A stretch of DNA of 32,000 nt from Pyrococcus furiosus DSM 3638 (GTDB lineage: Archaea > Methanobacteriota_B > Thermococci > Thermococcales > Thermococcaceae). The position numbers were made by a program, and so were the translations under genes. The DNA lies in the NCBI RefSeq assembly GCF_000007305.1, contig NC_003413.1, positions 1,568,141 through 1,600,140 on the forward strand, written 5' to 3'. Shown here one piece after another: positions 422-21,641 of the stretch (its first letter is position 1; every line of letters begins with the position of its first letter). Below the pieces are notes generated by a model that worked only from the letters and a program-made list of their open reading frames with translations, searched no databases and was not told the DNA's origin.

Positions 422-447
422 TTTGGATAGGAACAGTTGCCCAAGAA

Positions 448-455
448 TTTAAATA
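448..455 (+). promoter_or_regulatory. Archaeal TATA box (TTTAAATA) for the wHTH/aro transcription unit.
   Basis: Matches the consensus-like TTTAAATA in an intergenic A/T-rich stretch. A near-identical module, CCAA(A)GAATTT(T)AAATA, recurs at 13498-13514. Confidence 0.5.
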
Positions 456-486
456 CTCTTTTTATTTTCTTTGTGGATGGTGATAG

Positions 487-551
487 GGTGATGCCACGCC
501 AATTTACACAGCAAAAGGTGATGCCCCGCCAATGGGTGATGCCCTGCCAAT
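487..551 (+). repeat. Three direct copies of the 17-nt unit GGTGATGCCNNGCCAAT (487-503, 517-533, 535-551).
   Basis: Read directly: GGTGATGCCACGCCAAT, GGTGATGCCCCGCCAAT, GGTGATGCCCTGCCAAT. A fourth copy is at 13539-13555. Confidence 0.9.
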
Positions 552-559
552 ATCAATAG
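491..559 (+). CDS. Hypothetical 22-codon upstream ORF (MPRQFTQQKVMPRQWVMPCQYQ) formed by the three repeat units; candidate leader peptide.
   Basis: The ATGs at 491, 521 and 539 are all in one frame, with a TAG stop at 557-559. There is no homology evidence; the call rests only on the repeat and codon pattern. Confidence 0.3.
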   Translation: MPRQFTQQKVMPRQWVMPCQYQ

Positions 560-846
560 ATAACGGCGGGGTAGATGTTCTAAGAAAACTACTTCTTAGA
601 GCTTTAAACGAAAATCAGAGGCTTATACTTGAAAGCATAAACGGCAAGCACAGGTCATTGAACGCTCTACTTGAGGAACTTAGCAGAAAGAAAAGGAAAC
701 CACTGTCAACCCTAAAGCTTAATGCAAGAATTCTGAAGGAGCTAGGATTGATAGAATACGGAACAAAGGATGATCCAAAACCCGTTAGATTGACTGAAGA
801 AGGAAAACTTGTTCTGACAATTTTAAGAGGTGATGGAAGTGAGTGA
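532..846 (+). CDS. Small winged-helix (ArsR/MarR-like) DNA-binding protein; candidate regulator of the aromatic cluster.
   Basis: The 104-aa ORF reads NQRLILESINGKHRSLNALLEEL...TLKLNARILKELGLIEYG...PVRLTEEGK, a pattern typical of HTH plus wing. It is the first ORF after the promoter, and its stop overlaps the transketolase start. Confidence 0.65.
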   Translation: MGDALPISIDNGGVDVLRKLLLRALNENQRLILESINGKHRSLNALLEELSRKKRKPLSTLKLNARILKELGLIEYGTKDDPKPVRLTEEGKLVLTILRGDGSE

Positions 847-1492
847 AGTTCTTACAGTAAAGTTAAAAGAGATGCTAAAGCCTGTTAATGGCTTCCACAT
901 GAACTCCTCCTTAACTTGCCTTAGAATACTCCAAGCAGTTTTAGAACTAAAGAAGGAAGAAGATACGATAATAATAAGCAAGGGACATTCAGCCCCAGCA
1001 TTCTACGTTTTGCTCTGGAAAATGGGACTAATAAGTGACGAAGAACTTATGAGCTTCGCAGAAATTGACGGACTTCCAAGCCACGTAACTAGAGGACTCC
1101 CCTTTATTGAAGTCTCTTCAGGATCACTAGGTCAAGGCCTCTCTGTTGCAAACGGTATAGCACTAGCTAAAAAGATGGACAACAAGAAAGGCAGAATATT
1201 CGTTATTTTAGGAGATGGAGAGCTAGATGAGGGTCAAATATGGGAAGCTGCCATGACAGCAGCTCACCACAACCTTGACAATGTTGTAGCAATTATTGAC
1301 AGAAATTACCACCAGCTTACAGGACATACTGAAGATATACTCGCAAAAGAACCGTTAGCAGAGAAGTGGAAGGCCTTTGGATGGGAGGTTAGGGAAGTTG
1401 AAAATAATGTGGAAAAGCTAAAGGAAACCATAATCGAGCTAGAAAAGATCAATGATAGACCAAAAGTCATAATAGCGAGGTGGAATTGGTGA
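833..1492 (+). CDS. Transketolase, N-terminal (TPP-binding) subunit.
   Basis: Contains the GDGELDEGQIWEA thiamine-diphosphate motif and SKGHSAPAFY. GTG 830 and ATG 833 are alternative starts. Confidence 0.9.
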   Translation: MEVSEVLTVKLKEMLKPVNGFHMNSSLTCLRILQAVLELKKEEDTIIISKGHSAPAFYVLLWKMGLISDEELMSFAEIDGLPSHVTRGLPFIEVSSGSLGQGLSVANGIALAKKMDNKKGRIFVILGDGELDEGQIWEAAMTAAHHNLDNVVAIIDRNYHQLTGHTEDILAKEPLAEKWKAFGWEVREVENNVEKLKETIIELEKINDRPKVIIARWNW

Positions 1493-2412
1493 TAGAAAGC
1501 TTCAGAGAAGCTTTCGGAAGAGCACTTGTCGAAATTGGGAAGAAAAGAGAAGAGGTTGTAGTAATTGATGCGGATGTAAAAGGCTCAACAAAGACAATAT
1601 ATTTCGAAAAAGCATTCCCAAAAAGATTTATCCAAGTCGGAATAAGCGAACAAGATATGATAGGAACTGCGGCAGGGCTTGCAATTGCGGGTAAGATACC
1701 AGTAGCCTCTGCATTTGCAGTATTCCTAATGAGGGCCTGGGAACAGATAAGAAATACCGTAGCAAGAGACAACCTAAACGTGAAGATAGTAGGAACCCAT
1801 TCGGGATTTTCAGATTACATGGATGGATCATCCCATCAGTGTCTGGAAGATATCGCCCTTATGAGGGTTTTACCAAACATGAAGGTGGTTGTCCCAGCAG
1901 ACGCATACGCAACAAAAGTGCTGCTCGAGCAGATTATAGACACTTATGGACCAGTATATATGAGGTTGGGAAGAGACTATGCTCCAAGGGTTTACGAGGA
2001 TGGGACAAAGATAAAGCTAGGAAAGGCCAATGTGTTAAGAAAAGGAAAGGAAATACTTCTAGTGGCAGCTGGAACTTTAGTCCATACAGCGTTAAATGTA
2101 GCTAAAATGCTTGAGAAACTGAATGTAGATGCGAGTGTTATTGACATGCATACAATAAAGCCACTTGACGAAAAAACTCTCTTGAACTATGCAAAAAGAG
2201 CTGAATTAGTTATTACCCTTGAAGAACACAGCATTTATGGAGGGCTAGGAGGAGCAGTTGCGGAGGTTTTGAGCGAAAAACTTCCCAGGAGAGTAGTTCG
2301 GATAGGAACAGTAGAGTTTGGACAATCTGGTAGGGATTATCTTGCACTTCTAGACAGGTATGGATTAACACCCGACAAAATCTACCAAAAAATTGTCCAG
2401 GTGGTGATGTAA
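1480..2412 (+). CDS. Transketolase, C-terminal (pyrimidine-binding) subunit.
   Basis: Contains FIQVGISEQDMIGTAAGLA and a C-terminal domain. The start may be GTG 1480, or GTG 1489 overlapping the upstream TGA. Confidence 0.9.
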   Translation: MELVIESFREAFGRALVEIGKKREEVVVIDADVKGSTKTIYFEKAFPKRFIQVGISEQDMIGTAAGLAIAGKIPVASAFAVFLMRAWEQIRNTVARDNLNVKIVGTHSGFSDYMDGSSHQCLEDIALMRVLPNMKVVVPADAYATKVLLEQIIDTYGPVYMRLGRDYAPRVYEDGTKIKLGKANVLRKGKEILLVAAGTLVHTALNVAKMLEKLNVDASVIDMHTIKPLDEKTLLNYAKRAELVITLEEHSIYGGLGGAVAEVLSEKLPRRVVRIGTVEFGQSGRDYLALLDRYGLTPDKIYQKIVQVVM

Positions 2413-2422
2413 TTTGAGCGTT

Positions 2423-3211
2423 ATGAAGTACTCAAAAGAATACAAAGAGAAGACCGTAGTTAAAATCAATGACGTTAAGTTTGGTGAGGGGTTCACAATA
2501 ATCGCAGGGCCATGCTCAATAGAAAGCAGGGATCAAATTATGAAGGTGGCTGAATTTTTGGCAGAAGTTGGAATCAAAGTTTTGCGTGGGGGAGCATTTA
2601 AACCAAGGACTTCCCCCTATTCCTTCCAAGGGTATGGAGAAAAGGCCCTAAGGTGGATGAGAGAGGCCGCTGATGAATACGGATTAGTAACTGTAACTGA
2701 AGTTATGGACACAAGGCATGTCGAACTCGTGGCAAAATACTCAGACATCCTCCAGATAGGAGCCAGAAATTCCCAGAACTTTGAACTCTTAAAGGAGGTT
2801 GGTAAGGTGGAAAATCCAGTTCTGCTAAAAAGAGGCATGGGGAACACAATACAAGAGCTGCTATACTCGGCCGAATACATTATGGCGCAAGGAAACGAGA
2901 ACGTAATATTATGTGAAAGAGGTATAAGGACTTTTGAAACAGCTACGAGATTTACACTTGATATTTCTGCAGTCCCAGTGGTGAAGGAACTTTCTCACCT
3001 ACCAATTATTGTAGACCCCTCCCACCCAGCAGGAAGGAGAAGCCTAGTAATTCCACTAGCCAAGGCTGCATATGCCATTGGAGCAGATGGTATTATGGTT
3101 GAAGTTCATCCAGAACCAGAAAAGGCACTCTCAGATTCCCAGCAACAACTAACGTTTGATGACTTCTTACAACTACTAAAAGAGCTGGAGGCCCTGGGAT
3201 GGAAGGGATAA
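2423..3211 (+). CDS. 3-deoxy-D-arabino-heptulosonate-7-phosphate (DAH7P) synthase, type I-beta, catalytic barrel only.
   Basis: Contains the [19 protein letters not shown] and DPSH motifs. The 262 aa from [10 protein letters not shown] match my memory of the P. furiosus enzyme. There is no N- or C-terminal regulatory extension. Confidence 0.95.
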
Positions 3212-4206
3212 TTTTTGGAGATCTTTCAACACTTCCCGATTTGCTTTCTTCTCTTTCTCCCTACAAGGTAGTAGTTCTAACTAACACAACTCTAAAGGAA
3301 TTATGGCTCGAAGAAGTTCTAACGTGGTTAAAAGAGTTCAAACCCCAGACAATCGTTGTTCCAGATGGGGAAAAATACAAAGATTTAGATACAGTTAGAT
3401 ATATTTGGGAAAAATTACTAGAAATGGGATTTACACGAAGATCACTCCTAATAGGGTTAGGTGGAGGGGTTATAACAGACATTGCTGGTTTTGTTGCCTC
3501 AACATATATGAGAGGAACATACCTAGGTCTCGTTCCCACAACACTTCTAGCCCAAGTTGATGCAGCTATTGGGGGAAAAACTGGCATAAATTTCTACGGG
3601 AAGAATATAATTGGAACATTTTACCTTCCGAAATTCGTGCTAATTTGTAGGGACTTTCTCAAGACCCTCCCAATGGTGGAAATTCTTAATGGGTTAGCTG
3701 AAGTTGTGAAGTATGGAATACTAGACAAAGAAGTCTACAATGCAATTAAAACAATGAACTCTCCCAGGGAAATTGTAGAAAGGGAGGATATAATAAAGAA
3801 ATCTGTAGCGGTAAAACTGAGAATCGTAGAGGAAGATTTAAAGGAAAACGGAAAGAGGAGAGTTCTAAACTTGGGTCACACAGTAGGACATGCCATAGAG
3901 AAAATTTCTGACTACAAAATAAAACACGGCTTCGCAGTTTCAATGGGATTAGTTGTGGAAGCAAAAATTGGAGAAATATTGTATGGCTTTGATTCAGGGA
4001 AAGTTGTTGAGATACTAACTAAATTTGGTTTGCCTGTAAAAATACCCTTTGATCCATACACAACTCTTCAAGCCATGAAAATCGACAAAAAGGCTTGGTA
4101 CGGAAAGATAGTTATTGTTGTTCCGGTTGAGATTGGAAAAGCCAATATTGAGGAGGTAGATGAAAAGATAATTCTACAAGCGCTGGAGGAAGCTAAAAAT
4201 GCCTAA
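3199..4206 (+). CDS. aroB: 3-dehydroquinate synthase.
   Basis: Contains [19 protein letters not shown], the nucleotide-binding [11 protein letters not shown] and the metal site GHTVGHAIE. Confidence 0.92.
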
Positions 4207-4852
4207 ATTGGCCGGAGTTATAATAGCTAAAACCATTGAAGAAGCTGTAAAAAAGATAAAGCTACATGAAGCCGACCTTTATGAGCTTAGAGTAGATTAC
4301 CTGGAGAGCATGGAGAACATTGAACTCCTCTTACCTCATTCAAACAAGCTGATAGTGACCGTGAGGAAAGTAGAAGAGGGAGGAGCAAAACGCATTGAAG
4401 AACAAGAAAGGTTAAAATTATTTGAGAAGTTTGCAAAAATTAAACCTGCATATTTCGATGTTGAACTTTACTCAAATATCGTGGAGGATGTAATAAACCT
4501 CTCCTCAAAAATAGGGAGCAAAGTAATCCTATCATACCATAACTTTTCTAAAACTCCTTCATACCAAACTCTCCAATCAATTTTGGATTCGATGATAGAG
4601 CTTGAACCAGATATAATAAAAATCGTGACCTATGCGAGGGATTTTCGAGACAACATAGAGGTGATCAAACTCTACGAGAACAGCGAAAATCTAATTGCGT
4701 TTTGCATGGGCGAGAAGGGAAAAATTTCAAGAATATTTAGCGCCCTCTACTCTCCTTTTACGTATGTTAGCATTGACAATAGCGTAGCTCCTGGACAATT
4801 TACAGTTGGAGAGATGAGAAAAATCCTAGAATTGCTAGGTGAGACAAAATGA
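4199..4852 (+). CDS. aroD: 3-dehydroquinate dehydratase, type I.
   Basis: The length, ELRVDYL, SYHNF and IIKIVTYA are typical of type I DHQase. It lies between aroB and aroE. Confidence 0.88.
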
Positions 4853-5664
4853 TAAACGGAGAAACAAAAATTTATGGAATAATTGGCAATCCAGTAAAAC
4901 ACTCCTTGAGCCCAATAATGCACAACGCCCTATTCAAAAAATTTGGAATAAATGCCATTTACGTCCCATTCGAAGTGAAAAAAGATCTAAAGAATGCAAT
5001 AAACGGTGTTAAGGCACTTGACATTCAGGGAGTAAACGTTACAATGCCCTACAAAGAAGAAGTTATAAAATTCCTTGATGAGCTCTCCGAAGACTCTCAA
5101 AATATAGGAAGCGTAAACACTGTTGTGAACCTTGAAGGAAAGCTAGTGGGGTATACAACGGATGGAATAGGAGCCAGAAGAGCATTGGAGCGATTTACTC
5201 AGGTAGATGGGGCCAACATTTTAATTCTAGGAGCAGGAGGTGCTGGAAAAGCAATTGCATATGAACTCTCAAAAGTTGCAAATGTCGTAGTCTTAAACAG
5301 AACCATAGAGAAAGCCAAGAGGTTAGAAAAGTTTGGAATAGTGGGAGACTCCCTAGAAGCCCTCCCATATTATGTCGAGTGGGCAGATATACTGATTAAT
5401 GCAACCTCAGTTGGAATGAATGAAGAAAAAAGTCTAGTACCAAAGAATCTCCTAAGACCTGGGCTAGTTGTTATGGATATAGTCTACAAACCACTAAACA
5501 CCCTACTTCTTAGATATGCTCAGGAAAAGGGATGTATAGCTATTGATGGACTTTGGATGCTAGTCTATCAAGGAGCAGAGAGTTTTAGACTTTGGACTGG
5601 AGAGGAGGGAGACGTAGAACTTATGAGGAGGGTCGCCCTTGCGTGGCTTAGGGAAAGGAAGTAG
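4849..5664 (+). CDS. aroE: Shikimate 5-dehydrogenase.
   Basis: Has the N-terminus [27 protein letters not shown] and the Rossmann motif GAGGAGKA. Its ATGA start/stop overlaps aroD. Confidence 0.93.
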
Positions 5665-6460
5665 TGCAATAACTGTCGTTAATGCTTTTGCAACTGGAAA
5701 AGGCGGAGCTATTGGAATAGACCTATGGACTGAGGCCAAGGTAAAGATAACAGACGGAGAAGTTAAAGGGAAAATTCTTGTAAACGGGTTAGAATTCAAC
5801 GATTTTAGAGTAGTAAATGCCGTTTTGGATGTAATGAGGAGGTATTCTGGGATAGAATTTGGAATAGAGTTCGAGATAAACTCTGAAATACCCGTAGGAA
5901 AAGGTCTAAAAAGTAGCTCTGCCGTAGCAAATGCTCTTGTAGAAGCAATAGCAAGGGCTCTTCGCTTAAATATTCCCGGAATAAAGGTCGTAAAGCTTGG
6001 AGTTGAGGCAGCGAAAAAAGCAGGGGTAACATTGACGGGAGCTTTTGACGATGCTTGTGCCTCTTATTTTGGAGGTTTGTGCCTAACAGATAATCTAAGA
6101 GTTGAACTACTTAAGAGAATTGAAATTGATGAGTTGCCAGTGGTAATTTTAGTTCCAAATGAGACAGTTCTTACAGAAGAGCTGAAAGGGGTAGATTTCC
6201 TAAAAATAGCCCCCTATGTTGAGGAAGCATTCAAGCTTGCAATTAAAGGGGAATGGAAAAAGGCACTTGTTTTAAACGGATTGATATACTCAACATTTCT
6301 AAGCTATCCTCCTGAACCCATATCCAAAGCCTTACATCTTGGAGCTGTAGTGGGGTTAAGTGGAAAAGGACCAAGTGTATTTGCAATTACAGATGAACCG
6401 GAGAGGATAGAAGAAGTTTGGAGAGAATTTGGAGATGTTATAATTACTTCAACAAGATAA
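5639..6460 (+). CDS. aroK: Archaeal-type (GHMP-family) shikimate kinase.
   Basis: Contains the GHMP motif [15 protein letters not shown] and an N-terminus [12 protein letters not shown] like the M. jannaschii enzyme. TTG 5639 is the only start in the open frame. Confidence 0.85.
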
Positions 6461-6509: not shown

Positions 6510-7706
6510 ATGAGAAAGGTAGGAATTACACTTTCTGTAGTTGCTCTAGTAATAATGGGATTTGTAGCAGGATGTATTGGTGGTACTCAAACCCAGGGAG
6601 AAAAAGTAAAGGTAGCAGTTCTCTTTGACGTTGGAGGGAGGGGAGATTTAAGCTTCAATGATATGGCATACTTAGGAGCAGAAAGGGCAAAGAAAGAACT
6701 TGGAGTAGAAGTTGAATACATGACTCCAAAGTCTCGTGAAGATATGGTACCTTTACTAAAGCAACTGGCTGAAAGCAAGGAATATGACCTCCTAGTTCTA
6801 ATTGGGTTCCTTTGGACTACTCCATTAGATCAAGTAGCAGATCAATATCCAGATCAAAAGTTTGCCCTCATAGACTCAACTACTGGAAAAGTTAGGGAGA
6901 ATGAAGTAGATATTCTCTTTAGAGAACAAGAAGCTGCAGCACTCATAGGCGTGATAGCCTCTGGAATGGCCTATGAACTTGGTGGCGATACCATAGGTGC
7001 TGTAGCTGGAATGGACATTCCACCACTTTGGAAATTCCACATAGGCTACCTCTATGGAGCAAAGTATTTTGAGAAGAAGACTGGGAAGCCCGTGAAGTTG
7101 CTCTGGCAGTACACTGGAACATTTACAGATACACAAGTTGGATACACTACTGGAATGCAACTGTTGCAACAGGGTGCCAAAGTTCTCTATGGCCTAGCAG
7201 GTCTAACTCACGTTGGAATGTTTGACGCAGTAATCGACTGGAATAAGCAAGGAAAGGGCAAAGCACTTGCTATTGGTCAAGACGCAAGTCAAGAGTGGTA
7301 TGCACCAGAGTATATCCCAATTAGCGGAGCTAAGAGAGTTGACGTTGCTGTTTATACGGCCATTGAAATGGTTGTCAAAAATCAATGGAAAGGAGGAATA
7401 ATGACCCTCGGTCTCAAAGAGGGAGGCGTTGGCTACTGGAATTTGGATGGAGTTAGGCAATTTGCAGAATTTGCCCAGGAGGGTGGAAAACTAAAAGACA
7501 TGACCCCAGAAGATGTTGTTAGAATAGTAAAAGAGCAGAGAGAGAAGTACATAAAGCCAGAAGTTTGGGAGATCGTGCGTGAGCTTGAGGAGAAGATAAA
7601 GAATGGAGAGATAAAGTTCAAGACACCACAGAGCCACGACGAATATGAGCAGATAATTAAGGAGTTAGAGAAAGGTAACTTAGATGCCGCCCTCGAAAAA
7701 GAGTAA
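6510..7706 (+). CDS. BMP/PnrA/Med-family ABC-transporter substrate-binding lipoprotein.
   Basis: Has a signal/TM segment ending in the lipobox-like VAGCIGG. The BMP-like core includes DVGGRGDLSFND. A GGTGAT Shine-Dalgarno sequence lies 6 nt upstream of the ATG. Confidence 0.85.
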   Translation: MRKVGITLSVVALVIMGFVAGCIGGTQTQGEKVKVAVLFDVGGRGDLSFNDMAYLGAERAKKELGVEVEYMTPKSREDMVPLLKQLAESKEYDLLVLIGFLWTTPLDQVADQYPDQKFALIDSTTGKVRENEVDILFREQEAAALIGVIASGMAYELGGDTIGAVAGMDIPPLWKFHIGYLYGAKYFEKKTGKPVKLLWQYTGTFTDTQVGYTTGMQLLQQGAKVLYGLAGLTHVGMFDAVIDWNKQGKGKALAIGQDASQEWYAPEYIPISGAKRVDVAVYTAIEMVVKNQWKGGIMTLGLKEGGVGYWNLDGVRQFAEFAQEGGKLKDMTPEDVVRIVKEQREKYIKPEVWEIVRELEEKIKNGEIKFKTPQSHDEYEQIIKELEKGNLDAALEKE

Positions 7707-7707
7707 C

Positions 7708-7735
7708 TTTTTATTACCCCTTTCTCTTCTTTTTT
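7708..7735 (+). terminator. T-rich tract (T5 at 7708-7712, T6 at 7730-7735) after the binding-protein gene; possible partial terminator.
   Basis: Oligo-T runs are the archaeal termination signal. The position after an SBP gene is typical. No structure is required or seen. Confidence 0.25.
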
Positions 7736-7750
7736 CAGGTGTGCCAAGTT

Positions 7751-9256
7751 ATGAATGCAATTGAGATGGAGAATATAGTAAAGGTTTATCCAGATGGAGT
7801 TGTAGCCCTCAAGGGAGTCGACTTTAAAGTAGAAGCTGGGGAAATTCATGGTCTTCTTGGCGAGAACGGAGCTGGAAAAACAACGCTAATGAGGATCCTC
7901 TATGGGGAGATAAAGCCAACAAAGGGAAAAATAAGAGTTTTTGGAAAAGAAGTAAAATTTTCTGGGCCCTGGGACGCAATAAGATCAGGTATAGGAATGG
8001 TTTACCAGCACTTTACATTGGTCCCAACTTTTACTGTTCTTGAAAACCTTTACCTTGCCTTACTTCCATTAAATCCAAAAATTACCCTAAAAGAAGTCAA
8101 AAAACTTGCAAAAGAAAAGATGAAAGAAACTGGGCTCAAAATCCCCCTTGATGAAATAGTAGAGGATCTTCCTATTGGAATTCAGCAGAGAGTTGAGATA
8201 ACTAAGGCACTCATGCAAAATGCTAAGATTTTGATACTAGATGAGCCAACATCAGTATTAACTCCAATTGAAGTTAGAGAACTCTTCAAGACACTTAGAA
8301 AGCTCAAAGAAAAGGGAATTACAATAGTGTTCATTACCCACAAACTGAAGGAGGTAAAGGAGATAACTGATAGAGTCACCGTAATGCGAAGGGGAGAGGT
8401 AATTGGAACAGTGAAGACGAGTGAAGTTTCGGAAAAGGAGCTAGCAAAAATGATGGTGCAAAGGGACGTTGTAATGAAAATTGAGAAAATGCCCAAGGAG
8501 CCAGGAAAAACAGTGCTTAAGGTAGAGAATCTTTGGGTAAAGGACGATAGAGGATTAGATGCAGTAAAGGGAATATCACTAGAGATAAGGGAAGGAGAAA
8601 TACTCGGAATTGCAGGAGTTCAAGGAAATGGACAGAGAGAATTGGCTGAGACACTTGCAGGAGTTAGAAAACCAGAAAAAGGTAAAATTATCTTTGATAA
8701 AAAAGATATTACAAAAACAGGAGCACTTGAAAGATATAAGATGGGAATTGCATACGTTCCCGATTCCAGAAAAGTAGGATTAGTGGAAGAGATGAACATA
8801 GTAGAAAACACCATTCTCACAAATTTATTTGAAGTAGTTAAATCCGGAAGAATTTCTTGGGACAAGGGAAGAAAAATGGCAAAAGATATTGTAGAGAGGT
8901 TTGAAGTCATTACTCCATCCTTAGCTGCCAAAGTAAAACACTTGAGTGGAGGGAACCAACAAAAAATAATGGTTGGAAGAGAGATAATCAGAGAACCAAA
9001 GGTCTTCATAGTTGCAGAGCCAACTCAAGGGTTGGATATAGGAGCAACGGAATTCATAAGAAAAACATTACTGAATCTTAGAGATCAAGGAAAGGGAATT
9101 CTCCTAATTTCAACAGATCTAGATGAGATTCTTCAATTAAGTGATAGAATTGCCGTGATATATGAGGGTCAAATTATGGCAGTTGGAAAACCTGAAGAGT
9201 TCACCCTTGAGAAGCTAGGACTGCTAATGGGTGGTGTGCATGCTGAAAGTGAATGA
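7751..9256 (+). CDS. ABC transporter ATPase with two fused nucleotide-binding domains.
   Basis: Contains Walker A GENGAGKTT, Walker B ILILDEPT and the signature LSGGNQQK in the second half. ATG 7751 is preferred over GTG 7739. Confidence 0.9.
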   Translation: MNAIEMENIVKVYPDGVVALKGVDFKVEAGEIHGLLGENGAGKTTLMRILYGEIKPTKGKIRVFGKEVKFSGPWDAIRSGIGMVYQHFTLVPTFTVLENLYLALLPLNPKITLKEVKKLAKEKMKETGLKIPLDEIVEDLPIGIQQRVEITKALMQNAKILILDEPTSVLTPIEVRELFKTLRKLKEKGITIVFITHKLKEVKEITDRVTVMRRGEVIGTVKTSEVSEKELAKMMVQRDVVMKIEKMPKEPGKTVLKVENLWVKDDRGLDAVKGISLEIREGEILGIAGVQGNGQRELAETLAGVRKPEKGKIIFDKKDITKTGALERYKMGIAYVPDSRKVGLVEEMNIVENTILTNLFEVVKSGRISWDKGRKMAKDIVERFEVITPSLAAKVKHLSGGNQQKIMVGREIIREPKVFIVAEPTQGLDIGATEFIRKTLLNLRDQGKGILLISTDLDEILQLSDRIAVIYEGQIMAVGKPEEFTLEKLGLLMGGVHAESE

Positions 9257-10229
9257 GAAAACACTCGAAGTTATATCTTCGCTAATATTTGCATTCTTAA
9301 TAGGGGCAATTGTCTTAACATTGTTGGGATATAACCCGGCTAAAGTTTACATCATACTATTTAAATACGGGTACGGAAATCTTGAGTATCTCCTTAATAA
9401 AAGCACACCACTTATATTGACAGGACTTGCATTCTCAATACCAGCTCTTGCAGGTGTTTTTAACATAGGGGGAGAAAGCCAACTTTATGTAGGTGCACTT
9501 ACAGCCCTTCTAGTTGCTTATTATACAAGAAATCCTATTTTAGCCCTAATCCTCGGAGGAATAGCAGGAGGTGCCTTAGGACTTTTCATCGGAGCACTTA
9601 GAGTTTACAGAGGCATTAATGAAGTGATAACGGCAATAATGATAAACTGGACAATGTTCTACATTCTAGCGTACCTCATATCAGCCAAATACCACGATCC
9701 AAAAAATCCTCATGAATCCGTTCCAGTCCCATCTGAAGCAAGAATAGGGGGAATTTTCATAATTGCAGTTCTTATTGCTATTCTCTACTATTACCTCCTT
9801 AATTTTACGGAACTTGGGTACAAGTTGAGGGTGTCAGGATTGTCACCTAAATCTGCAAGGTATGCAGGGTTCAATCCCTCCAAGCTAATTCTCTCTTCAA
9901 TGCTATTGGGTGGTCTAGCTGCGGGCCTTGGAGGGGCCCTCTTAGTCCTGGGAATAACATATGCTATTGATGACACTCTCTCCACAGTATATGGAGTTGG
10001 ATTTACGGGAATAGGAATAGGGCTCTTGGGAAGGAACAATCCAATAGGAATAATATTCTCGGGAATATTTATGAGCGGACTGATAATTGGAGGGCAATGG
10101 GTTGAGTTAAAAACAGGAGCCCCACCAGAGCTTGCAGATACGCTAGTAGGTGTAATAGTGATAACCCTTGCAGTTCCCCAGCTGTATAGAGAAATTTTCA
10201 AGAGAATTAGGAGGGAGAAGCATGCTTGA
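9240..10229 (+). CDS. ABC transporter permease (BMP-system, YufP-like).
   Basis: Polytopic hydrophobic protein. ATG 9240 overlaps the ATPase stop and follows GGTGGTG. Confidence 0.85.
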   Translation: MLKVNEKTLEVISSLIFAFLIGAIVLTLLGYNPAKVYIILFKYGYGNLEYLLNKSTPLILTGLAFSIPALAGVFNIGGESQLYVGALTALLVAYYTRNPILALILGGIAGGALGLFIGALRVYRGINEVITAIMINWTMFYILAYLISAKYHDPKNPHESVPVPSEARIGGIFIIAVLIAILYYYLLNFTELGYKLRVSGLSPKSARYAGFNPSKLILSSMLLGGLAAGLGGALLVLGITYAIDDTLSTVYGVGFTGIGIGLLGRNNPIGIIFSGIFMSGLIIGGQWVELKTGAPPELADTLVGVIVITLAVPQLYREIFKRIRREKHA

Positions 10230-11130
10230 AGATGTATTTGTGCTTCTCTCAAACACATTATTTTCAATGGTCCCATTGGTTCTTGCTGGGGTTGGAGAAG
10301 TAATAACAGAGCGCTCTGGAGTGGTTAACATCGGGCTAGAGGGGATATTCATTCTCTCTGCCTTCCTCACAACTGTAGTTACGTTTTACACAGAAAATCC
10401 CTATCTGGGCCTCATAATTGGAATATTAGTTGGAGCACTCTCCGGACTTCTCCACGGGATAATCAGCGTATACTTGAAAGGTGATCAAATAATTGCAGGA
10501 GTTGGTTTTAATTCTCTAGCCTATGGAATAAGCATACTTTCACTTGTAGCCCTATGGCACAGTCACGGCTCCTCTCCTTCTGTAGAAAAGATGCCCGTAA
10601 TTATTATCGGCCACCTTACAATTCCCCCAATGGCAATAGTGGCAATATTAGTTGGAGTAATTACATGGTGGTGGCTATATAAAACTCCAAGCGGTTTAAA
10701 ACTGAGAGCTTGTGGAGAGGATCCAAGAGCTGCTGAGGCTATGGGGGTTAACGTTCACAGAACTAGGCTATATGCAACGATGGTGGGGGGAGCTTTAACT
10801 GGGCTCGGAGGTGCGTATTTAGTTGTGGGATGGATAGGGCAGTTTACAAAGTTTATATCGGCAGGAAGAGGATTCATAGCCCTAGCAAATGTAGCTTTCA
10901 GCAATTGGAATCCACTGATGGCAGTGGTGGGGGGAATTATATTTGGATTCTTTGACGCACTGTCAATATACGTACCAATAAAGATCCAGAAAACCACTGG
11001 AAGAATAATAACCGCAGAATCAAATCTCTTTAGGATAATCCCATATATAGGAACATTATTAGTGGTCACAATAATCATGAAAAAAGTTAAAGCTCCCAGG
11101 GCTCTTGGGAAACCTTATATCAAGGAGTAA
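10222..11130 (+). CDS. ABC transporter permease (BMP-system, YufQ-like).
   Basis: Polytopic protein containing GEVITERSGVVNIGLEG. ATG 10222 overlaps the previous stop (ATGCTTGA). Confidence 0.85.
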   Translation: MLEDVFVLLSNTLFSMVPLVLAGVGEVITERSGVVNIGLEGIFILSAFLTTVVTFYTENPYLGLIIGILVGALSGLLHGIISVYLKGDQIIAGVGFNSLAYGISILSLVALWHSHGSSPSVEKMPVIIIGHLTIPPMAIVAILVGVITWWWLYKTPSGLKLRACGEDPRAAEAMGVNVHRTRLYATMVGGALTGLGGAYLVVGWIGQFTKFISAGRGFIALANVAFSNWNPLMAVVGGIIFGFFDALSIYVPIKIQKTTGRIITAESNLFRIIPYIGTLLVVTIIMKKVKAPRALGKPYIKE

Positions 11131-11142
11131 CTTTCTTTCCCT

Positions 11143-11186
11143 TTTTAAATTCTGGCCAGCTCCACTAATCCAAAAAACAATAAATT
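11143..11186 (+). promoter_or_regulatory. Candidate internal promoter(s) for aroA: TTTTAAAT (11143-11150) and AATAAATT (11179-11186).
   Basis: These are A/T boxes in the 76-nt gap. The second lies about 25 nt upstream of ATG 11207, which has no Shine-Dalgarno sequence, so the transcript may be leaderless. Confidence 0.3.
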
Positions 11187-11206
11187 CATTGGAAGTAGCA
11201 TTCCAC

Positions 11207-12427
11207 ATGCTTAGAATTGTTCCACCAAAAGAAATTCAAGGTGAAGTAATAGCCCCGCCCTCAAAGAGCTACACCCATAGGGGTTATTTTTTGTCCCTCC
11301 TTGCAGATGAAAAAAGTATAGTAGAGAGACCCCTAATTAGTGATGATACCCTTGCAACCATAGATGCAATTAGAGCTTTTGGTGCTGATCTCATAGAAGA
11401 GGTGGTCTATCCTCCCGAAGAATTAAGGCCAAACTATATATTTGCCCGAGATTCTGGAACAACAGCAAGGATTTCAATAATAGTTTCTTCCCTAGCTAAG
11501 GGTGTTAGTGTAATAGATGGTAGGGAACAGCTCCGTAGGAGACCAATGGAAGATGGAGTATCTTCTTTGAGAATGATTGGTGTAGAAGCAATTGGAAAGA
11601 GACTTCCAGTGAAAGTCTTTGGGAGGGGAAGAATTAGTGCCAAAGAAGTCTCCATAGTGGCCGAAAAGTCCTCTCAATTTGCAACAGGCTTTCTAATACT
11701 AGCAGCGAAGATCGGATTGAAAGTCGAAATAGTGAAACCAGTCTCAAAGCCTTATATTGAGATGACACTAAAAACCATGGAAGAGTTTGGCGTTAAATAC
11801 GATAAAGCTCAAGAAAATGAGAGACTAGTAATTTTTGTTGACCCAGGAGTTAAGGGGACAAAATTTAAGGTTCCAGGGGATTATTCCTCAGCGGCAAACT
11901 TCTTAGTTGCCGGTGCACTCTACGGCAAGATAAGGGTCAGAAACTTGATGAGGGATGACGTTCAAGCAGACAAAGAAATCCTCAACATATTGAGGGAATA
12001 TGGAGCAAAAGTTAAGGTAAAAGATGAGTATGTAGAAGTTGAAAGCAACGAAAGAAATCCATTAAATGTAGATTGCTCAAACTTTCCTGATTTATTTCCC
12101 CTCCTAGCTGTTCTTGCGGCATATGCCGAAGGAAAAAGTGTGATACGAGGGAGACAGTTGAGGATTAAAGAAAGTGACAGAATCCATGCAATGGCGGTAA
12201 ATCTTTCAAGAGCTGGAATTAGAGTTAGGGAGCTTAGTGATGGACTTGAAATCTGGGGTGGCCAACCTAAGGGATTTAGGGGGAAAACATTCAATGATCA
12301 TAGGATTACAATGGCTTTAGCAATCCTCGCCCTGGGGGCTAAGGGCGAGAGTATAATTCCTGAAACTAAAAGTATTGCAAAGTCCTATCCAAACTTTTTC
12401 GAGGATTTAATGAGGGTGATAAAATGA
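11207..12427 (+). CDS. aroA: 5-enolpyruvylshikimate-3-phosphate synthase.
   Basis: Contains APPSKSYTHRG, PGDYSSAANFLVAG, LRIKESDRI and NDHRITMA. The start at MLRIVPP fits family N-termini; the longer ORF from 11105 is rejected. Confidence 0.92.
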   Translation: MLRIVPPKEIQGEVIAPPSKSYTHRGYFLSLLADEKSIVERPLISDDTLATIDAIRAFGADLIEEVVYPPEELRPNYIFARDSGTTARISIIVSSLAKGVSVIDGREQLRRRPMEDGVSSLRMIGVEAIGKRLPVKVFGRGRISAKEVSIVAEKSSQFATGFLILAAKIGLKVEIVKPVSKPYIEMTLKTMEEFGVKYDKAQENERLVIFVDPGVKGTKFKVPGDYSSAANFLVAGALYGKIRVRNLMRDDVQADKEILNILREYGAKVKVKDEYVEVESNERNPLNVDCSNFPDLFPLLAVLAAYAEGKSVIRGRQLRIKESDRIHAMAVNLSRAGIRVRELSDGLEIWGGQPKGFRGKTFNDHRITMALAILALGAKGESIIPETKSIAKSYPNFFEDLMRVIK

Positions 12428-13511
12428 ATGGGAAAATGTTGTCATTTCACTTATTTGGAGAGAGTCATGGGAAAGCCGTAGGAGAGTTCTAATAGAAGGA
12501 GTGCCTCCTGGGATAAGAGTTAACCTGGAGGAGTTAAAAGCCGAACTTGAAAGAAGAAAGGGGATTTCCAAATTTTCAACTGCCAGAAAAGAGAGCGACG
12601 AACCTATAATAATTTCCGGAGTTTTTAGAGGATACACTACTGGAGCTCCAATAACAGTAATTGTGGAAAATAAAGACGTAGATTCTTCATATTATGAGGA
12701 GATCAAAGATACTCCTCGACCTGGGCATGCAGATTATCCAGCAAAGATCAAGTATTTTGGCTTCAATGACTATCGAGGAGGAGGAAGGTTTTCTGGAAGG
12801 CTAACTATAGGCTTTGTAATCGCCGGATATTTCGCCAAGAAGATTCTCGAACCAGTGGGAGTAAAAATTAAAGCCTATATAAAGAGAGTTGGAAAAGTGG
12901 AAGCTAGAAACATGAGCATCGAGGAAATATTCAATTCTCCGAACCCTTACTGCCCAGATGAAGATGCATTTAAAGAGATGCTTAAGGAGATGGAAAGTGC
13001 AAAAAAGTCTGGAGACAGCGTTGGTGGAGTGGTAGAGGTTGTTGCAATAAACGTTCCCCCAGGATTAGGTGGACCTTATGAGGATGATATAGAAGCTGAT
13101 CTTGCCTCAACATTTTTCAGAATTCCAGCTGTAAAGGGTGTTGAGTTTGGACTTGGATTTAAGGTTAGTGAAAAGAGAGGTAGTGAAGTAAACGACCCTT
13201 ATGTCATAAAGAACGGAGAAATACAGACGGTAACAAACAATCATGGAGGCATTATAGGAGGAATAACAACAGGAATGCCAATAGTAGCTAGAATAGCGTT
13301 CAAACCAACTCCCTCAATATACCTTCCCCAAAAAACCGTAAATTTAAGAGAAATGAAGGAAACAACTATAAAGCTAAAGGGGAGATTTGACTCCTGCATA
13401 GTTCCTAAAGCTCTTCCCGTGGTTGAAGGTGCAATGGCCTTTGTGCTTGCAGATCACTTTCTTAGGAGGTTAGCCTGGGAAAGATATGTCCACCTATCCA
13501 AAGAATTTTAA
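12424..13511 (+). pseudogene. aroC: Chorismate synthase with the first 22 codons out of frame with the 336-codon main ORF (12501..13511). This may be a frameshift, a recoding event or a sequence error.
   Basis: ATG 12424 reads MNGKMLSFHLFGESHGKAVGEF, then a stop at 12490-12492. The other frame continues VLIEGVPPGIRV..., RPGHADY and GGGRFSGR. Removing GA from GGAGAGTT (12481-12488) restores GESHGKAVGVLIEGVPPG. Confidence 0.8.
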
Positions 13512-13514
13512 ATA
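13507..13514 (+). promoter_or_regulatory. TATA box (TTTAAATA) for the chorismate mutase / aminotransferase / tyrA unit.
   Basis: It overlaps the aroC stop and is paralogous to the 441-455 module. It lies 24 nt upstream of GTGGGGATGGTGAT. Confidence 0.5.
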
Positions 13515-13536: not shown

Positions 13537-13569
13537 ATGGTGATGCCACGCCAATATCAACGAATTTAG
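13537..13569 (+). CDS. Hypothetical 10-codon upstream ORF MVMPRQYQRI (or MPRQYQRI from 13543).
   Basis: Same frame logic as at 491..559, with a TAG stop at 13567-13569, 8 nt before the chorismate mutase ATG. There is no homology evidence. Confidence 0.25.
   Translation: MVMPRQYQRI
13539..13555 (+). repeat. Fourth copy of the 17-nt unit (GGTGATGCCACGCCAAT).
   Basis: Identical to unit 1 at 487-503. The following GCCAATATCAA matches the tail of unit 3. Confidence 0.9.
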
Positions 13570-13577
13570 ATGAACAA

Positions 13578-13808
13578 ATGACAACATTAAAACTCCTTAG
13601 AAAGGAGATAGATAAAATAGACAACCAAATAATATCTCTTCTAAAAAAGAGACTTGAAATAGCCCAAGCAATTGGGAAAATAAAGAAAGAGCTCAATCTC
13701 CCCATAGAAGATAGAAAAAGAGAAGAAGAAGTTCTAAGAAGAGCTGGCGAGTTTAGGGAAATTTTTGAAAAGATTTTGGAGGTTAGCAAAGATGTTCAAC
13801 GTTTATGA
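13578..13808 (+). CDS. Chorismate mutase, AroQ class (monofunctional, 76 aa).
   Basis: Contains LRKEIDKIDNQIISLLKKRLEIAQAIGKIKK...PIEDRKREEEVL, typical AroQ helices. Confidence 0.85.
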   Translation: MTTLKLLRKEIDKIDNQIISLLKKRLEIAQAIGKIKKELNLPIEDRKREEEVLRRAGEFREIFEKILEVSKDVQRL

Positions 13809-14829
13809 GCTATTTAATAAGATAAATGAGGTAAAACCAGAGATTCGACTTGATGCAGGACAACCAGATATCCCCGTAGCTAACGAAATAATAGAAGAAG
13901 CCATAAATTCTCTAAAAAGGGGAGAAACTGGCTATGTAAGTACAACTGGAATTAACGAGTTGAGAGAAAAGATAGCAGAAGTAGAAGGAGTGAGCAAAGA
14001 AGAGGTAATTGTTGGGCCTGGAGCCAAAATATTGATAGCTGCAGAGATAGCAATGGCCAACAAGATTGGAGTAATTGCCCCCTACTGGAATGCCTACCTA
14101 TTGATAGCCAAGAACTTTGAAAAAGAAGTTAAAATAATTGAGACAACATTAGAAAACTCCTGGGAGCCTGAAATTAACGACAACTTAGATGTTGACCTCC
14201 TAATTCTCAACTACCCCAATAACCCTACTGGAAAAATACTCCCAAGAGAAAAACTCAAAGAACTCGTAGAAGTTGCAGAAGAGAAAGGAATCAAAATTCT
14301 TTCCGATGAAATCTATGCTGAAATTTCTTTTAAGTCATTTACTCCTGTTCGAGAGCTCTATGAAAACACGGTCACCGTAAAGGGGTTCTCCAAACTGTAT
14401 TCAATGACTGGCTTTAGGCTTGGATACGCTATTGCCGATAAGGAAGAGATAAGGAAAATAAAAACATTCATTGAATCAACTGTCACCTGTGTTCCTCCTT
14501 TCGTTCAAAGGGCTGGGATCAAGGCTTTGGAGCTTAGAGATGAGTTAATGAAAAAAGTGAGTAGGGAGTATAAGAGAAGAGCAGAACTTGCCTCCAAAAT
14601 CTTGAGGGGATTAGAGTTCTATGAACCCGATGGAGCATTCTACATATTCCTCAAAACACCCATTGATGGGTTGGAATTTGTCTATAAACTACTCGAGAGG
14701 GGAGTTTCAGCATTCCCAGGAATAGCGTTTGGAAATTATCAAAACTTCATAAGGATCTCACTAACGAGTGATAAGCTCGAGAAGGGATTAAACATAATCA
14801 AGGAGGTAGCAGAATGCGAATCACAATAA
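13792..14829 (+). CDS. Class I PLP aminotransferase (aspartate/aromatic type).
   Basis: Contains NYPNNPTG and the PLP-lysine region FSKLYSMTGFRLGY. ATG 13792 overlaps the chorismate mutase 3' end. Confidence 0.88.
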   Translation: MFNVYELFNKINEVKPEIRLDAGQPDIPVANEIIEEAINSLKRGETGYVSTTGINELREKIAEVEGVSKEEVIVGPGAKILIAAEIAMANKIGVIAPYWNAYLLIAKNFEKEVKIIETTLENSWEPEINDNLDVDLLILNYPNNPTGKILPREKLKELVEVAEEKGIKILSDEIYAEISFKSFTPVRELYENTVTVKGFSKLYSMTGFRLGYAIADKEEIRKIKTFIESTVTCVPPFVQRAGIKALELRDELMKKVSREYKRRAELASKILRGLEFYEPDGAFYIFLKTPIDGLEFVYKLLERGVSAFPGIAFGNYQNFIRISLTSDKLEKGLNIIKEVAECESQ

Positions 14830-20917: not shown

Positions 20918-21603
20918 TATATCTCAGCCTCCACGAATTTTTTGAGAAGTTCTGCGGGATTTTCAGCTTTCATTAAAGCCGTCCCAATGAGTGCAGCATC
21001 AGCAACCCTTAAGGCCCTCTTCAAATCTTCCAATGTTGCTATTCCGCTTTCACTAACTTTCACGAATTTTCCTGGGATTTTTGGAGCTAAAATTTCAGTT
21101 AGAGAAACATCTCCATCGTCCATCTCTAGCTTTCCAATGTCCCTATTGTTTATTCCTATCATTGTAGAATTTGTTTTAATTGCGAGCTTTAGCTCATCTT
21201 CGGTATGAACTTCCACTAGAGTGTCAAGCCCATGCTCTTTTGCATAATCCACAAACTCTGGCAGCTTATCTTTCAATATTCTAGTTATTAATAGAACAGC
21301 AGAGGCACCAACTTCGGCAGTTTTTTCAATTTCCTCTTTGCTTGTTATAAAGTCCTTCCTCAGCACTGGGAGGGTAGTTTCCTTACATAAAACTTTTAGA
21401 AAGTCAAAGCTCCCTTTGAAATACTTTTGATCTGTTATGTAAGAAATCCCCACAGCTCCAGCTTCTTCATATGCCCTCAAAATCCTTAGAGGATCCCTGC
21501 CCCGTAAAAGATCTCCATATTTTGGAGAATAGACTTTGATTTCTGCTATAATAGGATTTTTCTTAGCCTTTCTAATAGCCCTGCTCAGTCCAAAAATCAC
21601 CAC
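20917..21603 (-). CDS. trpC: Indole-3-glycerol-phosphate synthase.
   Basis: Contains IAEIKVYSPKYG, RKDFI and NNRD. The GTG start at 21603 lies 8 nt after GGTGGAG. Confidence 0.9.
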   Translation of the reverse strand: MVIFGLSRAIRKAKKNPIIAEIKVYSPKYGDLLRGRDPLRILRAYEEAGAVGISYITDQKYFKGSFDFLKVLCKETTLPVLRKDFITSKEEIEKTAEVGASAVLLITRILKDKLPEFVDYAKEHGLDTLVEVHTEDELKLAIKTNSTMIGINNRDIGKLEMDDGDVSLTEILAPKIPGKFVKVSESGIATLEDLKRALRVADAALIGTALMKAENPAELLKKFVEAEI

Positions 21604-21641
21604 CCATTATACTCCACCACTACGACAAAAATAACATGATA

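Follow-up and report, generated by a model that had tools for sequence, protein, structure and literature searches.

Aromatic-codon leader modules ahead of tar and other aromatic amino acid genes in archaea: a candidate translated sensor of aminoacyl-tRNA supply

Ribosome-mediated sensing of amino acids through leader open reading frames (ORFs) is textbook bacterial biology, and to our knowledge it has not been established in archaea. In mycobacteria, polycysteine leaderless short ORFs (sORFs) attenuate cysteine genes (bioRxiv 10.1101/834739). In the archaeon Thermococcus kodakarensis, Tar (TK0271) is a DNA-binding activator of three aromatic operons, and its operator, TGGACA-N8-TGTCCA, lies upstream of the transcription factor B recognition element (BRE) and TATA box (PMC6737238). 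The organism grows without added Tyr, Phe or Trp, DNA binding by Tar is unaffected by Trp, Tyr or Phe, and all three operons are induced when any one of the three is missing; how this comes about, though Tar binds none of them, was left as an open question (Yamamoto et al. 2019, PMC6737238). Here we analyse a 32,000-nucleotide (nt) stretch of the Pyrococcus furiosus DSM 3638 chromosome (NC_003413.1, positions 1,568,141 to 1,600,140, forward strand; hereafter the window), in which an earlier note had drawn attention to three short repeats ahead of the tar orthologue, each followed by a codon for a different aromatic amino acid. The repeat unit belongs to a sequence module that recurs in leaders across archaea. 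Comparison of these leaders suggests, with a probability that we put at roughly 0.6, that the module is a translated sensor of aromatic aminoacyl-tRNA supply, pausing at which raises expression of the overlapping gene.

By sequence, the 104-residue tar product of the window, which the DSM 3638 re-annotation lists as PF1687, is the orthologue of TK0271. It has an identical copy in P. furiosus strain COM1 (CP003685.1) and is 73% identical to the cluster representative of TK0271. Re-reading of the tar leader confirmed what the earlier note had described, namely three 17-nt units (GGTGATGCCACGCCAAT, GGTGATGCCCCGCCAAT and GGTGATGCCCTGCCAAT; Table 1) behind a TATA box, with ATGs (491, 521 and 539) sharing one frame. 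That frame forms an upstream ORF (uORF) encoding MPRQFTQQKVMPRQWVMPCQYQ, and it contains the tar ATG (532). Searching the window with the unit pattern at up to 3 mismatches returned 5 matches against 0.5 expected, a number reached in 0 of 100 shuffles, and the copies are 88-100% identical to each other within the P. furiosus genome. A fourth copy, which the earlier note had missed, is identical to unit 1 and lies at 13539-13555, about 30 nt after the TATA box in the leader of the chorismate mutase gene (PF1701). The argument that three different aromatic codons could hardly arise by chance held up in part: with the first T fixed, the chance of Phe, Trp and Tyr is about 0.6% in one genome, but the Trp codon is not an independent event, since the TGG after unit 2 is partly forced by the overlapping tar start codon (CCA ATG G..). 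The evidential weight rests on the comparative data, not on this single-genome figure.

A profile search for Tar homologues gave 80 loci, all from metagenome-assembled genomes (MAGs), and isolate genomes were added through exact-protein look-ups. These leaders share ancestry, so their counts overstate the number of independent events; synonymous switches, distinct spacings and distinct gene contexts were taken as the independent ones. The module consists of a Shine-Dalgarno (SD)-like GGTGAT, an ATG, three codons (Pro/Ser, Arg/Cys and Gln, the last being CAA) and one aromatic codon. It was found before tar homologues in at least six lineages (Thermococci, Thermoplasmata, Korarchaeia-like Thermoproteota, Bathyarchaeia, Nitrososphaeria and Aenigmatarchaeota), with the first GGTGAT 21-24 nt after a TATA-like box. 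Three-unit leaders of the form MSRQF..(M/K)SRQWVMP(R/H/N)QY-stop were present in Thermococcales (L002, L003, L006 and T. kodakarensis, where the uORF reads MSRQF..MSRQWVMPRQY-stop), and the Phe codon of unit 1 was kept in all of them; the tar leader of CP015193.1 encodes MPRQFTQSKVMPRQWVMPCQYL before its stop. A T. barophilus-like group carries a single unit, MVM(P/S)(R/C)QY(L/S)-stop, and a P. abyssi-like locus retains a single Trp (W) unit, within MRGEFKVMPYQWKILE and a stop. In Thermoplasmata, one or two units of the form (A/C)GTGATGCCC(C/T)GCCAA are followed by TTC, TAT or TAC, while Korarchaeia-like Thermoproteota encode MPRQY or MSRQY and Bathyarchaeia a longer form, (M)DVHQLQY. In Thermococci and the Korarchaeia-like group the uORF mostly closes 0-2 codons past the last aromatic codon, via TGA, TAG or TAA.

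The link between unit and aromatic codon could thus be examined in orthologues far beyond Pyrococcus and Thermococcus, and it holds: an aromatic codon follows the Gln codon in 80/81 distinct Tar-homologue leaders, and TTA, TTG, TCN, TGY and stop codons never occur there in this set. Among the 101 site codons, which follow CAA or CAG (CAC in one unit) in the ATG frame, TAT was found 69 times, TAC 8, TTC 10, TTT 7 and TGG 7, such that the Tyr unit is the most widely conserved (77/101). Third-position T-C switches at this site are synonymous and recur in separate lineages. A scan for ATG-N5-CCAA-NNN in all fetched DNA, performed without regard to frame, found an aromatic codon in 70/85 matches behind a TATA-like box compared with 59/270 elsewhere (Fisher p = 9e-24). 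In an independent metagenome scan for GTGATGYCCYGCCAAT, in which the two bases after CCAAT were left free, all 15 matches in promoter context (about 30 nt behind an archaeal TATA box) were aromatic, as against 22/66 chance matches; bacterial-like contigs showed all T-codons. The spacings between units (18, 21, 30, 33, 36, 51 and 57 nt), also found regardless of frame, are all multiples of three, which has a probability of 5e-4 if they are independent. These comparisons suggest that the aromatic triplet carries information as a codon, over and above any role as a DNA motif. No extension to other amino acids was evident: non-aromatic ATG-N5-CCAA matches behind TATA-like boxes were at chance level and inside genes, with exceptions at L014 (Met) and L073 (His). 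The high identity of the copies within P. furiosus, and a chance figure for Phe, Trp and Tyr that is small yet not negligible in a genome scan, would also suit a recent local triplication without function. With the unit-specific triplets (TT, GG and AT) kept across Thermococcales and the module present in several other archaeal lineages, we regard this explanation as scarcely credible.

The same nucleotides are also read in the tar frame, and the repeats might accordingly be an N-terminal coding repeat of Tar, GD(A/V)(P/L)P(I/M), translated in Thermococcus from a leaderless GUG at +2, with the aromatic codons as a by-product. The tar frame is indeed open from this GUG through all three units in T. 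kodakarensis and three Thermococcus MAGs, and several Thermococcus differences between units 1 and 2 are synonymous in that frame (TAT/TAC, GAA/GAG, TTC/TTT, AAA/AAG). In Pyrococcus, however, a tar-frame stop comes before unit 1. The unit moreover heads unrelated genes, the equivalent of the tar frame ending quickly before pheS and before the gene for 3-deoxy-D-arabino-heptulosonate 7-phosphate (DAHP) synthase, and its nucleotide identity across phyla is far above that of the rest of Tar (45-55% amino-acid identity). In the tar frame, the codon that overlaps the aromatic one is ATA, ATT or ATG; ATC is never found there, though it makes up 28% of Ile codons in Tar bodies, and zero ATC in even 15 independent cases has a probability of 0.007. 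A pyrimidine always comes next after ATA or ATT, whereas the tar-frame residue that follows varies freely (S, L, R, C, F, Y). In the Thermococcus MAG L001, the third unit is degenerate and the stop comes later; its tar-frame Ile codon has been lost (CTA) and the Tyr codon of the uORF frame kept. Taken together, these observations make a coding repeat a very improbable origin of the pattern.

The triplet also matches the gene downstream. A Phe unit precedes the gene for prephenate dehydratase (pheA; Pfam PDT) in two Thermoplasmata (MPCQFTQTC-stop in L013 and MPCQFTPDR-stop in L021). Likewise, about ten sediment metagenome contigs carry a Phe unit, MPCQF(T/P/V)-stop, before archaeal pheS, which encodes the alpha subunit of phenylalanyl-tRNA synthetase (Pfam tRNA-synt_2d), here 100-130 nt upstream of the gene (L092:2044-2190 and about nine similar contigs within L091-L166). 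A Tyr unit lies before the chorismate mutase/aminotransferase/tyrA operon in Pyrococcus and Thermococcus and before an AroG-type DAHP synthase gene in L026, and a uORF with Y..W..F lies before an amino-acid kinase gene in L129. The tar leaders carry Phe, Trp and Tyr codons in the three-unit Thermococcales and Phe and Tyr, or Tyr, elsewhere. Separately, the stop codon UGA of the Phe uORF overlaps a plausible pheA start codon, UUG, as UUGA (L013:5769-5800 and L021:6581-6612), which implies translational coupling. The pheS leaders contain two conserved primary-sequence elements between module and gene, GCATAYTTTTATTAAAAC and AACAACTACATTAC, which may be a second promoter or a T-tract terminator.

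Primary transcription start sites (TSSs) mapped in T. kodakarensis by differential RNA sequencing lie at 227747(-) for TK0271 and 219368(-) for the chorismate mutase gene TK0261 (Jaeger et al., PMC4247193). Placed on the locus, both coincide with the first G of the module (GGTGATCGGTGATG... and GGTGACGGTGATG..., respectively), 21-23 nt after the TATA box (23 nt after TTTAAATA for TK0271), and hence the three tar units and the chorismate mutase unit are in the mRNA from +1. The possibility raised by the earlier note that transcription begins downstream of the uORF, which would have voided its interpretation, thus does not apply to this orthologue. By the same spacing, the P. furiosus tar TSS is predicted at G479, so the 4-codon mini-ORF that the note had read from ATG 477 probably lies outside the transcript. 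A GUG is found at +2 and an AUG at +11 in T. kodakarensis, and in Thermoplasmata and Bathyarchaeia an AUG or GUG lies at the predicted TSS. The P. furiosus uORF, with ATG 491 behind an SD-like GGTGAT, is therefore a short ORF with its own initiation signals in a leader that is transcribed in the orthologue, and it starts near the predicted TSS as the first cistron of a regulated operon, in the manner of the mycobacterial Cys sORFs. It contains codons for the end products Phe, Trp and Tyr, one per module rather than a run. In RNA sequencing data from T. kodakarensis, read counts for TK0271 are about ten-fold above those for the next gene, TK0270, in several conditions (PMC4247193, supplementary file 10); this ratio is compatible with a stabilised or an attenuated (prematurely ended) 5' segment of the aro mRNA and is not diagnostic.

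A candidate Tar operator was found at 424-443 (Table 1), where T. kodakarensis has TGGACAGGCAAACCTGGCGA at the corresponding position of its aro promoter. It is the sole match at up to 2 mismatches that adjoins a promoter; with up to 3 mismatches allowed, the window as a whole holds no more matches than chance predicts, and it is position, not match frequency, that supports it. The units themselves are direct repeats downstream of the TSS without likeness to the TGGACA-N8-TGTCCA palindrome, and we rejected them as a Tar operator; the earlier note's alternative, in which the adjacent winged helix-turn-helix (wHTH) protein binds them, is accordingly unsupported. Binding downstream of the TSS is a classic position for archaeal repressors, and the units could more generally be DNA operators from +1 to about +70 at which a repressor, Tar or another factor, blocks RNA polymerase recruitment. 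Such a role would suit units that begin at the TSS, show almost no base changes, even at the wobble positions of the two frames, and recur in several promoters of one regulon. Apart from the different location and palindromic form of the mapped Tar site, it leaves unexplained the restriction to five aromatic codons with synonymous switches, the spacings in multiples of three rather than helical repeats, the stop in the same frame and the match of the triplet to the downstream gene (Phe for pheA and pheS). We consider operator function improbable.

A start-codon problem accompanies the module. Here the frame of tar is called frame a and that of the module ATG frame b, which is a+1. In the leaders inspected, frame b has an ATG or GTG a few codons upstream of the aromatic site. 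Frame a was searched from the last in-frame stop (or from 45 nt upstream of the first unit) to the conserved domain, and in 53/80 Tar leaders it is open with no ATG, GTG or TTG; gene callers give such genes truncated proteins or extensions back through the promoter. The sole frame-a ATG that units supply is that of the W units (CCA-ATG-G), with which an ATG in the tar frame always coincides in Tar-homologue leaders, and this is the tar start in Pyrococcus and T. kodakarensis. The chorismate mutase genes of T. kodakarensis, L002 and L003 are likewise in frame a relative to their unit, open and devoid of a canonical start. In TK0261 (L088:18322-18609), the frame is open from mRNA +1 and its sole ATG is codon 38, whereas the Pfam CM_2 domain begins at codon 19; the gene is annotated as a 58-residue fragment from this ATG, 19 codons inside the domain. 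Judged from its sequence, this annotation is almost certainly wrong and the true start non-canonical. Since these chorismate mutases and most Tar homologues have no canonical start, frame a must be opened by some non-canonical event in or close to the module.

Three candidates for this event were considered. In the first (a), translation would begin at an AUA or AUU that shares bases with the aromatic codon, 9 nt after GGUGAU, where the W unit has the tar AUG. In the second (b), a frame-b ribosome would shift by -1, or drop off and restart, at C-CAA-UAU; this fits a starvation logic, in which a hungry codon gives more Tar or chorismate mutase, and it fits the invariant CCAA, the SD-like GTGAT 7 nt upstream of CAA in Thermococci and Thermoplasmata, and a hairpin 6 nt downstream in Bathyarchaeia. 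In the third (c), termination would be followed by reinitiation, as hinted at by ATGA at the P. furiosus chorismate mutase and TTGA at pheA and some tar genes. Substitution patterns in the spacers between units favoured neither a frameshift nor AUA/AUU initiation, as constraint seems to act on the tar frame in Thermococcus and on the uORF frame in Pyrococcus. Candidate a leads to an explanation of the unit as an initiation region and nothing else, in which SD GGTGAT, a 9-nt spacer and a start AUG, AUA or AUU in the tar frame make up the element and weak starts keep expression low, as in infC. The annotated tar start (ATG 532 and that of TK0271) lies at precisely this position of the W unit, for which the GGTGAT of unit 2 is usable as an SD, and many tar homologues and the T. 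kodakarensis chorismate mutase gene offer no other candidate start. On the other hand, nothing in this account explains the pyrimidine after AUA or AUU, the gene-specific choice of Phe or Tyr or the fact that the other frame universally keeps the AUG or GUG of the module. In Bathyarchaeia, moreover, there is no SD at a usable distance from AUA, which would also face competition from the 5'-terminal AUG or GUG of the other frame. That the unit serves initiation alone is thus unlikely.

The sensing model that we favour would operate as follows. In P. furiosus, three modules are fused in one 22-codon uORF that would start about 12 nt from the 5' end of the mRNA and overlaps tar one base out of frame. 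Ribosomes would translate this uORF, their dwell time at the Phe, Trp or Tyr codon reporting the supply of the matching charged tRNA, and whenever they paused at Phe 503, Trp 533 or Tyr 551, more Tar would be made from the overlapping -1 frame. At the second site, chorismate mutase would be the -1-frame gene that is raised. More Tar would activate the aro promoter (in an autoregulatory manner) as well as the trp and tyr-phe promoters through Tar boxes; running short of just one aromatic amino acid, whichever it is, would thus be enough to raise Tar and all three operons, with the Tyr unit adding branch-specific control to the chorismate mutase operon.

How pausing might be turned into output is less clear-cut. 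For overlapping genes we lean, at somewhat less than even odds, towards frame switching or restart at the hungry codon (CCA-AUN instead of C-CAA-UNN), because in most cases the -1 frame comes without a start codon. In a route that is more doubtful overall, and likelier where the module lies at least 100 nt upstream, as at pheS, a stalled 5'-proximal ribosome would shield the 5' end or block a termination factor; schemes of coupling or occlusion take the remaining probability. A stricter proposal is that the Tar homologues of most lineages and the Thermococcus chorismate mutases are made only by a -1 shift or restart at the Gln-aromatic site, with C-CAA-UAU read as CCA-AUA. The ribosome would come from the module AUG, the trigger would be an A site left empty by a scarce aromatic aminoacyl-tRNA, and the restart variant would drop a 4-residue peptidyl-tRNA. 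We offer this proposal tentatively and would bet against it. If it is true, amino acids would be sensed through programmed recoding at hungry codons, a mechanism shared by lineages from Thermococci to Bathyarchaeia; this would be categorically new and would account for the ability of T. kodakarensis to respond when Phe, Trp or Tyr alone is missing.

Several observations weigh against the sensor model or its recoding form. Translation of the uORFs and their regulatory role are deduced from sequence comparison, and the Trp codon is in part dictated by the tar ATG. The unit is nearly invariant at all bases except two Y positions, beyond what a 4-residue peptide would need. This near-invariance fits dual coding with the tar frame (GDxPP(I/M)), and it also fits recognition of the nucleic acid by protein or RNA; dual coding accounts for it only if both short peptides matter, and a trans-acting factor that reads the RNA or DNA is the alternative. 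Two Thermoplasmata leaders with three units (L014:9914 and L020, near position 790) have ATG-G after their first unit (CCAAATGG and TCAGATGG), which gives Met in frame and TGG one base off; this unit may be a decayed Trp unit. In a Micrarchaeota Tar-like leader (L073:9930, MASQHNHT..), two His codons occupy the aromatic position, and this module may have been re-targeted to another amino acid. With respect to recoding, P. furiosus tar (ATG 532) and chorismate mutase (ATG 13578) have their own ATGs, and the slippery heptamer X XXY YYZ is absent from the module site, which reads C CAA UAU, UUU or UGG; re-pairing of tRNA-Gln on CCA would be poor. Coupling, in turn, would lower expression on stalling, the wrong direction for a starvation response.

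RNA structure near the module adds further points of this kind. The P. furiosus tar leader folds with z = -3.6, and unit 3 can pair with a downstream segment (Table 1), but this pairing is strong (-18 kcal/mol) only in the three-unit Thermococcales. A conserved RNA switch was rejected: swapping arms between lineages leaves the mean duplex energy equal (-7.2 compared with -7.4 kcal/mol), and there is no general covariation. The hairpin at 540-573 is lineage-specific or incidental. In Bathyarchaeia, the Tar leaders (L028-L080) share a 6-bp hairpin, GCGGAG-N8-CUCCGC, 6 nt after CAA-UAU (alignment A3, columns 37-56), with 98.6% of cells paired and one pair showing a compensatory G-C to A-U change in two sequences. 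Synonymous sites in the Leu-Arg codons of this hairpin are fixed, in contrast to those of the Leu-Arg pair that comes next, which is free to vary; a hairpin downstream of the module is conserved in Bathyarchaeia only.

No terminator-like site was found in 380-900, no T5 run was seen by eye in 479-900, and Rfam 15 gave no gathering-score matches in the window, chance-level matches only in 380-700 and none in a pheS leader. The pheS leaders have no consensus RNA structure. A bacterial-type transcription attenuator was rejected, as the uORF overlaps tar, no terminator follows and the pheS leaders are without conserved structure. The earlier note's suggestion of a bacterial-style mechanism consequently falls, there being neither terminator nor antiterminator, and its interpretation as a whole is partly supported.

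The coordinates of the features are collected in Table 1. From 532 to 6460, the window encodes PF1687, a split transketolase, DAHP synthase, 3-dehydroquinate (DHQ) synthase, DHQ dehydratase, shikimate dehydrogenase and shikimate kinase, and 11105-13511 comprises the genes for 5-enolpyruvylshikimate 3-phosphate (EPSP) synthase and chorismate synthase. Behind a second promoter, from 13578 on, come the genes for chorismate mutase, an aminotransferase and a split prephenate dehydrogenase, and the trp operon occupies 21603-15577 on the minus strand. Inserted within the aro operon at 6510-11130 is a Bmp/PnrA-type ATP-binding cassette (ABC) transporter (binding protein, ATPase and two permeases), which interrupts the order of the shikimate kinase and EPSP synthase genes; it is also present in Pyrococcus loci L084 and L087 and absent from T. 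kodakarensis (L088). The prephenate dehydrogenase region (14814-15588) consists of two overlapping ORFs, PF1703 and PF1704, and is either frameshifted or a two-piece gene. Divergent from the trp promoter is PF1712 (21760-22440), an ACT-domain protein and candidate amino-acid-binding regulator.

Table 1. Features of the P. furiosus window discussed in the text (positions count from the first nucleotide of the window)
Feature	Position	Strand	Detail or basis
Candidate Tar operator TGGATAGGAACAGTTGCCCA	424..443	+	4 nt before TATA box; 2 mismatches to TGGACA-N8-TGTCCA
TATA box TTTAAATA, aro/tar promoter	448..455	+	Sequence
First SD-like GGTGAT	479..484	+	6 nt before uORF ATG 491; G479 is the predicted TSS, by T. 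kodakarensis spacing
Unit 1, GGTGATG CCA CGC CAA T, then TTT (Phe, 503-505)	487..503	+	Sequence
uORF, 22 codons, MPRQFTQQKVMPRQWVMPCQYQ then stop	491..559	+	+1 frame relative to tar; sequence and orthologous uORFs
Unit 2, then TGG (Trp, 533-535)	517..533	+	GGTGAT 9 nt before tar ATG 532; sequence
tar (PF1687), 104 residues, wHTH	532..846	+	T. kodakarensis orthologue TK0271 (P0053)
Unit 3, then TAT (Tyr, 551-553)	535..551	+	Within tar codons 2-7; sequence
Hairpin, unit 3 (GCCCUGCC) with GGCGGGGU (565-572; GGCGGGG)	540..573	+	Tyr codon and uORF stop in loop
TATA box TTTAAATA, chorismate mutase (tyr-phe) operon promoter	13507..13514	+	Sequence
Chorismate mutase leader uORF MVMPRQYQRI-stop (ATG GTG ATG CCA CGC CAA TAT ... 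TAG), unit 4 then TAT (Tyr)	13537..13569	+	Sequence; orthologues
Mini-ORF ATG AAC AAA TGA	13570..13581	+	Read from sequence; adjoins uORF stop (TAGATG)
Chorismate mutase (PF1701)	13578..13808	+	-1 frame relative to its uORF; own ATG 13578; sequence
trp-operon leader uORF MGGDFWTEQGY-stop	21572..21607	-	Overlaps trpC start (GTG 21603); possible module relative

Orthologous chorismate mutase leader uORFs encode VTVMSRQYRVLIL (T. kodakarensis, from the mapped TSS), MVMQRQYP and MVMPSQYRRMMNRS, each before a stop. In P. furiosus, the stop of the mini-ORF that adjoins this uORF overlaps the chorismate mutase start (ATGA), making a chain of stop/start coupling. At the trp operon, a Thermococcus MAG (L001) has the counterpart MTGDGFWPEQGY of the P. 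furiosus leader uORF, likewise followed by a stop. An SD-like GGTGAT followed by UUU-UGG on a U-run gives this leader a prfB-like +1 geometry into the trpC frame, and trpC of T. kodakarensis has its TSS 18 nt ahead of the start. Conservation of the trp-leader uORF may be a by-product of trpC coding.

The module amounts to a sequence-defined signature of a codon-level sensor, conserved across phyla and carried by the transcript for the only activator of aromatic biosynthesis known in archaea. With it, the question of Yamamoto et al. (2019) as to why any one missing aromatic amino acid induces the operons though Tar binds none gains a testable answer, and the module could be the missing amino-acid input to the Tar regulon. 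The start-codon puzzle of TK0261 and Tar, where non-AUG initiation or recoding must occur at the module, can be addressed in the genetically tractable T. kodakarensis. As an annotation rule, the module also corrects mis-called starts, such as the TK0261 fragment and the many Tar genes with false N-terminal extensions through their promoters.

A full-text literature search returned the Tar paper and bacterial and mycobacterial analogues, and nothing on archaeal aromatic leader ORFs or on the TK0261 start-codon problem. The T. kodakarensis Tar regulon (PMC6737238) shares its genes and promoters with the window, including the Tar-box-like palindrome at 424-443; the Tar site lies upstream of the TATA box, whereas the module, which that work does not mention, comes after the TSS. 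The E. coli trpL, pheL-pheA and pheM-pheST leaders resemble the module in being short 5' ORFs with codons for the amino acid of the downstream pathway or synthetase, and the pheL-pheA and pheM-pheST pairings are mirrored by the Phe modules before pheA and pheS. Sensing by ribosome speed would be common to both. Unlike these leaders, the archaeal module has one regulatory codon instead of a run and no terminator or antiterminator hairpins or U-tract; its uORF begins within about 12 nt of the mRNA 5' end and in many cases shares sequence with the main ORF in a different frame, the sequence GTGATG-YCC-YGC-CAA is itself conserved across phyla, and the transcription and translation machinery is archaeal. 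The mycobacterial Cys sORFs share with it the position as a 5'-terminal or near-leaderless first cistron of a biosynthetic operon and the end-product codons, but they are bacterial, have consecutive Cys codons and show neither a conserved module nor a start-less main ORF in the -1 frame.

Regulatory frameshifting is known from prfB (a +1 shift that involves an SD before the site and a slow codon in the A site), from dnaX (a -1 shift with an SD about 10 nt before the site and a hairpin after it) and from E. coli hungry-codon shifts. The module has in common with these systems an SD-like element 7 nt upstream of the P-site codon, a potentially slow A-site codon and an open product frame without a start, to which Bathyarchaeia add the conserved hairpin 6 nt downstream; it differs in having no X XXY YYZ heptamer and in the poor P-site re-pairing (CAA to CCA), and it is known from sequence alone. 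The sole programmed -1 frameshift in archaea of which we are aware, in Sulfolobus fucA1, uses a classic slippery site. In the tnaC/Rho and ermC systems, a ribosome stalled on a 5' leader ORF either obstructs a termination factor or guards the mRNA against decay from the 5' end. These resemble the proposed 5'-end route in that a 5'-proximal stalled ribosome raises downstream expression, and they differ in that stalling depends on the nascent peptide together with a ligand or antibiotic, not on tRNA supply as proposed for the module; we know of no link between the archaeal counterparts FttA/aCPSF1 and aRNase J and leaders. Sensing of amino acids by leader ORFs is of a known kind, and the archaeal form proposed here would be new.

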